From: Octopus vulgaris
Lineage: Eukaryota
DNA: 64,000 bases
Assembly (NCBI GenBank): GCA_951406725.2
Contig: OX597828.1
Span: forward strand, 62,001 to 126,000
Reading direction: 5' to 3'
Every line of letters begins with the position of its first letter. Position 1 is the first letter of the stretch. The notes under the pieces are model-generated. The model was given only the letters and a program-made list of their open reading frames with translations, was not told where the DNA came from and did not search any database. A program made the translations under genes and the position numbers. This document shows, in pieces, positions 3,681 to 31,988 of the stretch.

Positions 3681-4982
3681 AATGATAGCCAGAATGATAG
3701 CCTTAAACTGCTTCAATGCAAGTTACTTGAGGTTCGATGAATAATTTAATGGACGTCTCGCTTCTCCCTTTCTCTTTATCCCTCTCCTTCCTAACATCTC
3801 TCCATTGCATTCATCATGTGCACCCGACTCCAGTCCCTTTCTATTAACTGTTATGGCTCAGGGGTTACAGAATAGCTATGCTACTCTCCTGCAGTTCACC
3901 AGCCTCTCCGATCACCTTGGACTGTTGAAGTAGCCGTAAGAAGGTGTTTCTTATGGCCAGATCACATTTTCACTGCATTGTCCTAGGAACAGATGTTCGT
4001 TAGATTTGAGATAAGATCTCCAAAGTGACCAAAGACTCGGAAGACCTGACCATATCGAACGATCTGAAAATCAATTAGATCTGTTTCCTATTTTATTTCA
4101 ACCACAAAAATAGAAAACCTCCTTCACCCAGTTTCCTCATCAGCTCCAATTAGGATGACTGGGTAGTTTTTTTTTTATTCCTTCTTTTATCTGGATGTTC
4201 CCAAATTGTCACAGGCATTAGTATCCTTAGAGTTACCTGGCCATTTGAGCAGAATCTTGCGCTGTTGTTACCTCCCACCTCAGCACGTAGCCTCAATCAT
4301 CACACACGAGCCTCCAGTGTACACATTTTCACCAAGCGCCTTCTAGATCCTCAAACTCACTACCTTCTCTGTTTATCTGTCACCGCAACATCTCTCCTTC
4401 CCTTACACCATGTCTTCAGTCCGGTGTTAAGTTCCATTTTTTTTGTACACCCAGATAGATATAGACAGTCTCTACCCTCATGCACTCAACCCAGAGGAAC
4501 TTTTAGGTTGTGATAATTGGCTAGACAGGGTACCACATCCATTTAACTTAAAGATGGAAGATTTACAGCCACAGCACATCGATATCACCGGTTCTCGCCG
4601 CCATATCATCGACGTTCAGCAACATCGAGCTTAATAAGTACTTAAATGGGTAACCAATGGGAAATCTAGGGGTTGCAAGCATGCCCTTTTCCATTTTGTA
4701 GAGTTGTACAGCAGCAGGAGACGTCCAAGAATGATGTATGATAGAACGGCCTCTAAATATAGAGGGTAACCGCAACTAAACTAGCTTCATGATTAATAAA
4801 CAGTGAAAGCCGAACAATGGCAGAGATGACCAAGAAGTAGTCATCAGGAAGTTGATACTGAAGGATCTACAGACAACTGTTTATAACATGTGATGTTGTC
4901 CTGTAACAGGGTGGGAAATAGTTGCCTTAAAATAAATGAGTAAATATATAAATATGTATACACACACACAAATATATGTATG

Positions 4983-6791: not shown

Positions 6792-7195
6792 TATTTCTTT
6801 ACTACCCACATGGGGCTATACACAGAGGGGACAAACAAGGACAGACAAACGGATTAAGTCGATTACATCGACCCCAGTGCGTAACTGGTACTTAATTTAT
6901 CGACCCCGAAAGGAGGAAAGGCGAAGTCGACCTCGGCGGAATTTGAACTCAGAACGTAGCGACAGACGAAATACCTATTTCTTTACTACCCACATGAGGC
7001 TAAACACAAAGGGGACAAACAAGGACAGACAAACGGATTAAGTCGATTACATCGACCCCAGTGCGTAACTGGTACTTAATTTATCGACCCCGAAAGGAGG
7101 AAAGGCAAAGTCGACCTCGGCGGAATTTGAACTCAGAACGTAGCGGCAGACGAAATACCGCTAAGCATTTCGCCCGGCATGCTAACAATTCTGCC
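6792..7195 (-). mobile_element. SINE family A, dimeric copy (184-bp internal repeat)
   Basis: tatttctttactacccaca recurs at 6792 and 6976; tRNA-like head at the right end. Inserted within a family B SINE (6685-6790 and ~7280-7550). Confidence 0.88.
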
Positions 7196-18470: not shown

Positions 18471-18770
18471 AGTTTGCTTCTCAACCACATGGTTCCGGGT
18501 TCAGTCACACAGGTGGCACTTTGGGCGAGTGCCTTCTACTATAGCCTCAGGCTATGAATGGATTTGGTAGACGGAAACTGAAAGAAACCCGTCATATATA
18601 TGTGTGTGTGTCTCTGTGTTTGTCTCTCCCTATCACCGCTTGACAACCTGTAACAGCGGTTCGGTTCGTTTTGATAGAATAAGTACGAGGCTTAAAAGGA
18701 AGAATCGGTTTGTCCGACTAAAAGTCTACAAAGCGGCGCTCCAACATGGCTGAAATAAGTAAAAGATAAA
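18470..18770 (+). mobile_element. SINE family B copy
   Basis: caaccacatggttccgggttcagtc...ctatagcctc...ggatttggtagacggaaactgaaaga matches 39315-39750. Confidence 0.82.
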
Positions 18771-18780
18771 AGATATATGT

Positions 18781-18851
18781 TTAAGTTTAATTTGTCAAAA
18801 TATTTTCGTCGCTAAAATCCGCGACCTGTTCACTGACAAAGTCCGTGCTGC
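18781..18851 (-). mobile_element. 71-bp insertion with 15-bp target-site duplication
   Basis: ATAAAAGATATATGT at 18766-18780 and 18852-18866 flanks the insert exactly. Confidence 0.8.
18791..18840 (-). ncRNA. Minimal type I hammerhead-like motif with G3-C8 swapped core
   Basis: Minus strand: TTTGTCA-GTGAACA-G-GTCGC(ggatttta)GCGAC-GAAA-ATAT-T-T-TGACAAA. 7-bp helix I, 5-bp helix II, palindromic stem III. Confidence 0.72.
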
Positions 18852-19175
18852 ATAAAAGATATATGTATATATAAAAACCTCTCTCTCTCATACAAGAGTT
18901 AAGGAATGGGATGGATAAAATCGGGGCTACATATGTTTCATAGCGAGCAGAACCTCAGAAGTGGTAAATATTCAAGCGAGGTGTGTACTGCAGACTACTC
19001 TTCAGGCCAGGGATATCTTGATTAAATGAAAGTTTACATTGTGGCAAGGTGGTACGTGTTAATGCATGGTGTAAAACAATGTAATCTTCTCTTCAGGGAA
19101 GTGAAGAAATGAAACTCGTCAATCAGACATTTTAACAGAAAATGATGGATGTGTATAGTGATTTATATCATAAAA

Positions 19176-19403: not shown

Positions 19404-20019
19404 TTAGATATAACGTCAGAGGCAGCCTATAGAAAGAGGAGGAATAAAGTAAGGAAAAGTTAAATAAATGAGAAGTATATGACTATTTATATTAAATAAA
19501 ACCTTATAAACTAGGAAAATATACATTTTTTTAGCGAATGTTAAATATAAAAAGAAAATTAATGTTTAAATTATATATAAGGATAGAGATTACTTATATG
19601 AACTAAAGGTGTGTTCTTGCCAATGTTTACATCGGTATGCACGCTCTACATGTGTTGGAAAAACCAATCCTAACCGTATGTGAGTTGATAATAGAGTAAT
19701 ACCTATAAGGAAAATTCCAAAACGGGAATTGGTTGGGCAATAAGAAAAGCGAACCAGGTGCCTTATGGTATTTTTACCAGCTTCTTTTCGTTGAAATCAC
19801 GCCATGACCTGCTTGAACGCTTGTCTTAACCCGTTGCTTGGTTTAGCACCGTAACCTAGCAATTAGTGGACCAGGTCTTCGATTTGATGACACCTCTTCG
19901 TCTTTCACCCATCTACCGTGCCAGGGATCCACTAAAGGGTCACAAGAACTTCTTGCCTGATTAAAAGATAAAAAAAAAACGACGATAAAGTGACTGAGTA
20001 GAGCATCCACGTTGGCGCC

Positions 20020-20862
20020 AAGGTAGATGAAAGTATGAGGGTGGTGGTTGTGAGTGAAGGGGCCAAGGATGATGAAGGTATGGTGGTGGTGATGGTTGTG
20101 AGTGAAAGGGCCAAGAGAGATGAAGGTATGAGGGTGGTGGTAGTGGTGGTGCTTGTGAGTGAAGGGGCAAGAGAGATGAAGTTATGAGATGATGGTGATG
20201 GTTGTGAGTGAAGGGGTCAAGGGAGATGAAGGTATGAGAGTGGTGGTGGTTGTGAGTGAAGGGGCCAAGAGAGATGAAGGTATGAGATGATGGTGGTGGT
20301 TGTGAGTGGCCAAGGGAGATGAAAGTATGAGGGTGGTGGAGGTGGTGGTTGTGAGTGAAGGGGCCAAGGGAGATGAAGGTATGAGGGTGGTGGAGGTGGT
20401 GGTTGTGAGTGATGGGGCCAAGGGTGATGAAGGTATGAGGATGGTTGTGAGTGAAGGAGCCAAGGGGGATGAAGGTATTAGATGATGGTGGTGGTTGTGA
20501 GTGAAGGGGGCCAAGGGAGATGAAAGTATGAGGGTGGTGGAGGTGGTGGTTGTGAGTGAAGGGGCCAAGGGTGATGAAGGTATGAGGATGGTTGAGTGAA
20601 GGGGCCAAGGGAGATGAAGGTATGAAGGTTTTGGAGGTGGTGGTTGTGAGTGAAGGAGCCAAGGGAGATGAAGGTATGAGTGGTGGTGATGGTGGTTGTG
20701 AGTGAGGGGACCAAGGGAGATGAAGGTATGAAGGTTTTGGAGGTGGTGGATGTGGGTGAAGGGACCAAGGGAGATGAAGGTATGAGGATGGTGGTGTTAG
20801 TGGTGGTTGTGAGGGAAGGGGCAAGGGAGATGAAGGTATGAGGATGGTGGTCGTGGTGGTGC
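20020..20862. repeat. G-rich minisatellite with variable ~42-60-bp unit
   Basis: About 15 copies of ggtggttgtgagtgaaggggccaagggagatgaaggtatga with a variable (GGT)n spacer. Confidence 0.95.
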
Positions 20863-29560: not shown

Positions 29561-31434
29561 CTAATGAAGTCCTTTACATTTGCCAGAGAAACAACAGCAA
29601 CTCGAATGAAATTCTCAAGGATTACGTAACGTCAGCTGAAGGAGAAAAAACATACCGTAACCTTGGCAACAGAAAGAGGGGCTGGAGGCAGGTCATGTTA
29701 ATGAAGCTGGTAGTGATGCAGTATTAATGAGAGTGGCGCTGGTTTGAGGCTAGTGCCAGATCAACCATAATTAAAGACGTTCCAGCTGTGACCACCCAGT
29801 CTTTTATTCAGTGTTTCTAGACCTACATTCTATCATATACCTTTTCTATTTTGAGACAGCAAAGAAGGGATTTGGTTGTTGTTTTTAGAAAATTGAGATG
29901 ACACGAACAAACTCTCATGGTGTCAGATCTTTACCTTTTTTTTTATCCGCTCAACCACAACCGCCGAGAGGATGAAATGCAGAGTTGACCTTAAAGATCC
30001 GAGACAAAACGCATTTTTACCAATGCTCTAATTCTGACAGCTCGTCGGTAGTTTTAATAATGGTGGCAATGGTGATGGTAGGACCTTGATAGTTTTTGAA
30101 ATGGCCGTCGTGTTCATGGTGGTGGTGGTGGTGGTGATGGTGGTGGTGGATTAGGAGTCATATATCTGTGAAAAGAGTGAGCAGGCGTTGTGAAATACTG
30201 GAATCTTGTATCAAATTGAAGTCATTGGATGACGACCAGGAAATGAAGGTCACAGGGTCAAAATATTGGAACGAAGGTGACAGTGTCAGGACCACGACTT
30301 ACAAAAAGAACTGAAAAACAGCAAATAATATCTCCAGTTCCTCACAGAACCAAAAGCAGTCAAAGATCAACAGTCAGGAAATCTTAGTCCTGCAACAGAA
30401 ACAAAATACATTTTTCTTTTTATGAGACAAGGGAGATTACCGAACAAGCTTCAACTGACACACAATAGGTAGACCTATTTTGCTTTCGTTTGATTTTATT
30501 TCAAACGATAGCAAAATATCAGAATTTCACAAAAATGAAACACTTAAATTTTACGGACAAAAATATCGTGAATAAAGAAAACATAATAAATTCTTGCTAA
30601 AATTTTATCGCAGAAAAATCAAGATTTTCCTTCCGACCAGTCTTCATACATATCGAAAATCTCATATACGAGTTTAATATTTTCCACAAAATATTTATGT
30701 AGAGGTGGCGAAAGAAATGTATGGAGGTGAGATGGTCTTTATAGATGTAGTGGAATCTCATATGAGATTTCCTGAAAAGATATTCTATAACAGACAAACA
30801 AGTAGAACCTTCATTGAATTAGTTAACTATTTAACCAATTGAATTGGTTAACTATTACCAATTAAATTTATTGCTTGCTTGGTTAGTCATTCAGTTAACT
30901 AATCAATCAATAAGTTATGTTTATCAAAGTCCTTTGATCGCTATTCGCAACACTTTTAATGACAAGCCATTCTCTAATCCAGATCAAGAACCTTGCAAAC
31001 GAAATATAAAAACGAAAATTGATTTATGGTTTTAGAAAATGTACAATCCTAACAGAATCATCTCTTTATACAACAGTTCGCGCAATGATATAGAATCTAT
31101 TTTACCCTGATATCAACTTAGCTTTATACAATAGCTCACTCAATACAGATTTACATTTTACCAATAAAATAATACTTTTGTATCGAGGGTATCCTTGTCT
31201 CGCATGTGCTTTCATCTGACACCATGTACTGAAAGTAAAGCAGTTACATCACAAAAAACACATATTGACCACACAAAGACTATTATTTGGCACCAAAACT
31301 GTCGTCGCCACAAAACTTTTGGCCCTATAACAATTCTTAAGTGAGGTTAACAGTACAGTTCTATATTTAAGAGATGAGGAATTATTTACGTTATTTGCAT
31401 TTGACCGATACTTGTCCTCCTCTTGTTTGTTGTT

Positions 31435-31480
31435 AACACAACGTTTCGACTGATATACCCTCTAGTCTTCATCAAGTGTC
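31435..31480 (-). ncRNA. Minimal type I hammerhead-like motif
   Basis: GACAC-TTGATGA-A-GACT..AGTC-GAAAC-GT-T-GTGTT; C3 is T. Confidence 0.7.
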
Positions 31481-31543
31481 TTGGGGAAATTTCGAACCTG
31501 AGTTCTCATTCCTAATTAGAACCCAGGTTCGAAATTTCTTCAA

Positions 31544-31583
31544 GACACCTGATGAAGGCTGGAGGGTATATCAGCCGAAACGT
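31544..31583 (+). ncRNA. Minimal hammerhead motif with canonical core, truncated at the cleavage site
   Basis: GACAC-CTGATGA-A-GGCTG(gagggtatat)CAGCC-GAAAC-GT; the 3' strand of helix I is absent. Confidence 0.75.
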
Positions 31584-31988
31584 AGAGGTTAACAGTATTT
31601 GTATTTTTGCCTGGTTAATGTGTTTTTCATGCTGTAATGTCTGTTAATTTTTAGTAATTTTTGATAAAAATGGTTCCTCAAACATCGTCAAATTAAAAGA
31701 GTGTTTTGGACTGAACAGTTTCCAGACCTAAATTCCTTTGAAAAATTATTGCAGGTCTTTTAGTCAACTGTGGAATAAATAAATAAACTTTTATAAATGA
31801 TGTAAGCCTCATGTCGACTGGCCGTTTATTTGATTTAATTAACAAAGGAGAGAATCTTCTTGTTAGGTATTTATTTTTTTCGCGTTAGTGAAGTGAAAAG
31901 GATAAAATATATAGTGTATATTTATGCGTTAATTTAATTTTCTTTTTCTTTTCTCTTTTCACTGCAGTTTTAGCGTTTTTAATATTCG

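Follow-up and report, generated by a model that had tools for sequence, protein, structure and literature searches.

Minimal type I hammerhead ribozymes are already known from the pLTRs of Penelope elements (Cervera and De la Pena 2014, PMC4209133). As described there, they carry an extra base between A9 and G10.1 and a G10.1-C11.1 pair, have a palindromic or absent stem III and an NUU triplet, and occur in inverted and tandem copies. The pair between core positions 3 and 8 is C3-G8 in 53 of the 56 representatives in the supplement text (our own count), U3-A8 in two, U3-G8 in one and G3-C8 in none, from a search that favoured CUGANGA. Natural covariation at 3-8 is represented by U3-A8 hammerheads (Perreault 2011, PMC3088659; Schistosoma Cercyon, PMC4209133), a pair that two transitions can produce via a wobble, whereas G3-C8 takes two transversions. 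The latter swap has been engineered as C3G/G8C double mutants, in which cleavage was partly rescued (PMC11167929; PMC9901934; reviewed in PMC8495972). A full double-mutant scan reported the C-G to G-C swap as the only strong rescue in the 3-8 region (PMC9901934), and the swap partly rescued a Penelope hammerhead that cleaves only with the element's protein present (PMC11167929).

Those mutants are laboratory constructs on other scaffolds. In Octopus vulgaris, by contrast, a high-copy family carries G3-C8 as its wild type, together with U17, as read from its sequence. The copy that drew attention to it lies in a 64,000-nucleotide stretch of contig OX597828.1 (the window). Neither a natural G3-C8 family nor an octopus Penelope hammerhead was found in our literature search, the coverage of which fell short of one likely relevant paper. 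It is well supported that the motif is a real natural variant of a known motif kind, within an ordinary fragment of a known element kind. With a probability of roughly 0.65, the insert is a 3'-short pLTR copy from a Penelope-like family carrying a G3-C8 minimal type I hammerhead motif, the swap being likely compensatory and maintained by selection for a fold that would cut slowly, and then only in dimeric form.

The window insert and its minus-strand motif

Identical 15-mers at 18766–18780 and 18852–18866 are separated by 71 bp, as the preliminary description had stated, and the match extends no further on either side. Two letters at the 5' end and one at the 3' end would also fit the element, so the insert may be 71–74 bp with a duplication of 12–15 bp. 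Sequence identity defines both duplication copies; for the left one there are also depth and loose ends at 18750–18779, and it is probably at the same time the (TA)n-tailed end of a host repeat of high copy number. The insert itself (18781–18851, minus strand) corresponds to the first 71 nt of a young Penelope-like pLTR, with a normal 5' boundary, an unusually short 3' end and no ORF start.

On the minus strand, the 5' strand of stem I (18834–18840) pairs over 7 bp with the 3' strand at 18797–18791. Between them, the core strand (18826–18833) reads G3 U4 G5 A6 A7 C8 A9 plus a bulged G, with G3 at 18833, C8 at 18828 and the bulged base at 18826. Helix II (18808–18825) has 5 bp, a G10.1-C11.1 closing pair and an 8-nt loop. 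G12 A13 A14 and the 6-nt palindrome AAUAUU of the putative stem III follow at 18799–18807 (palindrome 18804–18799), with pairing predicted only between two molecules. By analogy with hammerhead numbering, the predicted cleavage site is 3' of U17 (18797–18798, U17 at 18798). The three-way layout of a minimal type I hammerhead is present (stem I, helix II with G10.1-C11.1, GAAA and UH) and positions 3 and 8 form a Watson-Crick G-C pair, but the CUGANGA consensus letters are departed from at G3 and C8, with the remaining core letters in place. The motif can be likened to a Penelope minimal hammerhead, and strict membership would fail on those consensus letters.

The 7-bp helix I, 5-bp helix II and palindromic stem III of the preliminary description were all recovered. 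Its core letters, GUGAACA, were also correct, but the reading was one base short, omitting the G at 18826; the bulged base is G here and H in the consensus of PMC4209133. The UUU triplet, previously called suboptimal, does not count against this motif in particular, NUU being common among the published Penelope hammerheads (PMC4209133).

The 53-nt motif folds with z = −3.66, and none of 200 shuffles was equally good; for the whole 71-mer, z was −2.10 and 10 of 200 shuffles did as well. In the predicted monomer, stem I is extended by a G3-U17 pair, a fold preferred by 1.3 kcal/mol (−14.6 vs −13.3 kcal/mol). Stem III cannot close within one molecule, which is why a dimer through the AAUAUU palindrome is predicted, as has also been proposed for other minimal hammerheads (PMC4209133); the palindrome permits such a dimer, and its duplex by itself is predicted at only −0.2 kcal/mol. 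Rfam returned no hammerhead and one chance match in the 401-bp region around the insert. Over the whole window, microsatellite-driven miRNA matches appeared among the 150 listed of 321 matches.

An insert-free allele was looked for, as had been suggested. The joint 18780-to-18867 was absent among the 15 of 22 joints listed from assembled contigs. One contig from run X15 matches 18660–18780 with one difference and then has 6 further letters outside the alignment, which hints weakly at an insert-free version of the site. A joint 18775–18854 was rejected as an empty site because other letters lie between its two sides; it probably belongs to a further copy of the host repeat. Across four runs with four organism labels, no alternative letter reached at least 3% inside the 71-mer, in contigs, which drop rare variants. 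The duplication is atypical for the family: a non-simple duplication was seen at one of 39 other 5' ends, and seven more had one in (TA)n only.

Elsewhere in the window, 4561–4681 has a weak 5S rRNA match (36.3 vs the Rfam gathering score of 38 bits) and is possibly a 5S-derived repeat, 6792–7159 is a near-exact tandem of a 184-bp unit with 97% matches, and 20019–20860 is a G-rich minisatellite with periods of 54, 147 and 201.

The parent element

The genome searched comprises 2.8 Gb in 227 contigs. When 40 of 916 candidates for the 71-mer were scored, 51 matches were obtained, 41 of them full-length and 100% identical. All 30 loci fetched run on past nt 71 into a shared pLTR tail that mostly ends in (TA)n, and a tandem arrangement with a pLTR-ORF junction gives a unit of 4261 bp. 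The preliminary description had taken the insert for a 71-bp element made almost entirely of a hammerhead; it is instead a 3'-short piece of a pLTR end about 200 bp long, belonging to a Penelope-like element of 4.26 kb.

One locus, L087, retains a single open frame of 1025 aa encoding a reverse transcriptase (RT) followed by a C-terminal GIY-YIG endonuclease (EN). The GIY-YIG domain scores above the Pfam cut-off; Pfam RVT_1 gave no match in this ORF, where the RT motifs were recognised by eye, and Atlas neighbours carry RVT_1/GIY-YIG at 0.96. A PDB sequence search with the ORF returned 0 matches. A CX2-5CxxC linker (CQSNCAVC) lies between RT and EN. The hammerhead motif has the sense orientation and follows the ORF stop by about 1 kb; in the tandem copy it lies about 55 nt upstream of the ORF ATG (at +111). 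Simple repeats of the (TACA)n and CA types are abundant in the interval from ORF stop to motif (L087:2490-3460) and move with the element.

Tandem and 5'-inverted pLTR copies are found, as in Penelope elements, and inverted 5' partners are common. The 3' tail is also variable: its end falls at +135 to +145 (near +143) in 44 of 103 distinct fragments and at +194 to +208 (near +203) in 54, both within the ORF start. This resembles the anole Penelope element, in which reverse transcription begins at two internal sites (PMC11167929). None of the 103 fragments ends at +71, where the window copy stops while keeping the usual 5' boundary. The exact abutment of the duplication on both ends of the window copy is what a stand-alone 71-bp mini-retroelement or retrozyme would leave, as first proposed, yet such a retrozyme or SINE-like non-coding unit should have recurring ends of its own, and the copies instead continue into pLTR and ORF, with 98 of the 103 fragments ending near the two positions above. 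We consider that proposal highly improbable.

The parent of the insert is a young Penelope-like element with RT, GIY-YIG and a Neptune/Nematis-type linker. It resembles the EN+ Neptune/Nematis-type elements (PMC8557442) in its single ORF with RT before a C-terminal GIY-YIG, the CX2-5CxxC linker, pLTRs, 5' inversions, (TA)n targets and two preferred 3' ends inside the ORF start. Those ends are about 60 nt apart in the octopus family vs 30–40 in the Neptune/Nematis type, and the likeness is one of layout.

Element 5' ends cluster just upstream of the motif. At 23 of 54 junctions unlinked to the element body (overlapping loci retained), a G is found where the template has T, which we infer to be an added cap G. 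Branch-point-like and acceptor-like sequence sits directly at the pLTR 5' boundary in L087. A splice acceptor at this boundary was considered and set aside, since no common upstream exon was seen, and we prefer to read the boundary as a start site to which a G is added.

G3-C8 within the family and the 3-8 pair in its relatives

The genome was searched with a motif pattern left free at positions 3, 7 and 8, with the reversed pattern as control. It gave 5966 matches against 0 for the control; matches are not equivalent to insertions because inverted pairs are counted twice. G3 A7 C8 was present in 5299 of the 5966. C3 occurred in 47, three of which also had G8, and all three C3-G8 matches differ in their loop and flank sequences and come from a different family. 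The motif is therefore multi-copy with G3-C8 as its family consensus, as the preliminary description had anticipated, and is neither a single-copy sequence nor a CUGANGA family. Three young subfamilies with different loop II sequences (median divergence 0.8, 1.5 and 4.5%) all have G3-C8. An older, decayed family (52 matches, median divergence 22%) has C at N7; among its 29 homologous copies (30 loci, one unrelated and dropped), 23 have G3 and 25 have C8.

All families were found by patterns demanding most core letters, except for one set of the older family anchored on the tail and collected independently of the motif. For this set, 30 of 248 tail-stretch matches were fetched and the anchor copy was dropped; 14 of the remaining 29 copies had less than 60% identity at the other motif columns and were also dropped, leaving 15. 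Position 3 was G in eight, A in six, T in one and C in none, and position 8 was C in ten, T in four and G in one. The high A at position 3 calls for caution; C3-G8 was found in none of the copies.

The related families are tied together by homology at the start and the end of the ORF. A canonical pattern gave 1631 genome matches vs 161 for its control, and families A, B and C are among these matches. Their pair is C3-G8; they share the bulged G, helix II and the ORF start are homologous, and ORF remnants lie upstream, with 47.7% identity over 593 aa for family A. In family F (L243–L252, G000), 10 of 10 copies have U3-A8, as in the natural hammerheads cited above, with an AAUU palindrome and an ORF start homologous to that of the G3-C8 family. 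Family E (L253–L262 and L226–L234, G000) is old and mostly U3-G8, with C3-G8, U3-A8 and C3-A8 copies: ten copies unselected at position 3 comprised seven U3-G8, two U3-A8 and one G3-G8. Among loci selected for C3, 7 of 10 matches were C3-A8, and the pairing is imperfect. Classing this family as canonical was rejected as an artefact of the C3 search pattern. Family E may be a trace of a wobble intermediate between C-G and U-A.

Of 21 rows chosen by hand, ten have G-C at 3-8, nine have C-G, one has G-U and one is unpaired. Pairing in helix II reaches 99%, and in seven rows A-U takes the place of a G-C pair there. The rows are mutually related, and the counts are a description, not a probability. 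Stem I pair 6 shows a compensatory change from G-C to U-A. The stem III palindrome is AAUU in the old and F families and AAUAUU in the young one, and comparison of the sequences suggests that it grew from the shorter to the longer form. With C-G, U-A and U-G at the same positions in related families, the earlier proposal that the double change is natural covariation of the 3-8 pair is, for a comparison of sequences, well supported.

Other relatives were also noted. Window 31430–31590 contains an inverted pair of another Penelope-type minimal hammerhead, with a canonical CUGAUGAA core on the plus strand (C3 at about 31549–31550) and a more decayed U3-G8 copy on the minus strand (position 3 at 31475). 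At L273:791-864, an F-type terminal repeat is found some 800 bp behind the end of a young-type ORF, in the reverse orientation, and may stem from an independent insertion or from recombination.

From the predominance of C3-G8 in the published set (53/56; PMC4209133), G3-C8 is probably the derived state. Every route to G-C, whether from C-G, U-G or U-A, needs two transversions, which implies that an unpaired intermediate was tolerated. Such a survivor is also what would be expected if two unselected substitutions had arisen in one source element, complementary by chance, and spread because the element needs no ribozyme; all G3-C8 copies may stem from a single event, and by simple arithmetic four of the nine double changes from C-G still pair. 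This account fits poorly with the comparison of the old and young families, in which the core, G3-C8 included, remained constant while about 30% of flank sites changed, loop II was replaced and the stems changed in compensating ways. Between the two consensus sequences, 35 of 36 constrained positions are identical, the sole change being at the free N7, vs 48 of 69 in the non-coding flanks (Fisher p = 0.0007, weakening to p = 0.09 if four CpG or tied columns count as changes). We regard a chance origin as improbable.

An unrooted protein tree, from which the old and F families are absent, sets the young lineage apart from families A, B, C and E (support 100/100); on the young side, the hammerhead state was read for one of 12 rows. 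An ORF of the old G3-C8 family was looked for and not found. U17 accompanies G3 in all G3-C8 families and is already present in the C3-G8 family C. It may have permitted the swap, and G3-C8 is reported to work worse with C17 (PMC3884650).

Predicted cleavage and the life of the element

Under the compensatory reading, the RNA would start just before the motif, and two motifs, either the two pLTRs of a tandem transcript or those of two transcripts, would pair through the palindrome to form stem III. G3-C8 would hold the ribose at position 8 as C3-G8 does. The cut after U17 would be weak or protein-assisted, leaving most RNA to be reverse-transcribed uncut. Slow cutting would suit the element, in that cutting would leave the front copy without its cap and the rear copy without its priming sites. 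The window copy was likely inserted at a staggered nick in the AT-rich (TA)n tail of the host repeat, producing the 15-bp duplication, with priming earlier on the RNA than usual.

The inserted copies were inspected for ends at the predicted cut. None of the 103 fragments starts or ends there, and genome-wide there is no excess of copies beginning at it (14 vs 10 at a control offset); stem I microhomology accounts for 6 of the 14. This absence of ends indicates that the inserted DNA came from uncut RNA, which fits a slow and a dead ribozyme equally. The missing footprint is thus also expected of a hammerhead-derived motif whose fold is still selected but does not cut, serving as a dimerisation or element-protein binding site, in which G3-C8 would keep the fold and not catalysis. 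In the anole data of PMC11167929, hammerhead mutants had no effect on insertion in vitro and none of the RNA reads ended at the cleavage site, and metazoan minimal hammerheads are reported to cleave poorly (PMC4209133). This alternative has to explain why the core letters other than 3, 7 and 8 were kept (partly by construction of the pattern) across families with ORFs about 45–50% identical, and the 3-8 pair is an established part of the active conformation (PMC8495972). We consider a non-cutting fold rather unlikely and favour a compensatory swap in a slowly cleaving, dimeric hammerhead.

A further possibility, which we put forward tentatively, is that one Penelope-like clade walked the 3-8 pair through C-G, U-G, U-A and G-C, and that the G-C form, active and deliberately slow, won in the expanding family because it leaves most capped transcripts uncut, to be translated and reverse-transcribed. 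If true, G3-C8 hammerheads would be a recurring class missed by CUGANGA searches. The octopus family lends natural phylogenetic support to a swap of the core pair that is known chiefly from mutants made in the laboratory. Although its motif is present thousands of times in a single animal genome, it escapes both Rfam and the standard hammerhead searches. The natural 3-8 variants on one scaffold offer a ready set for asking what hammerheads do for Penelope-like elements.
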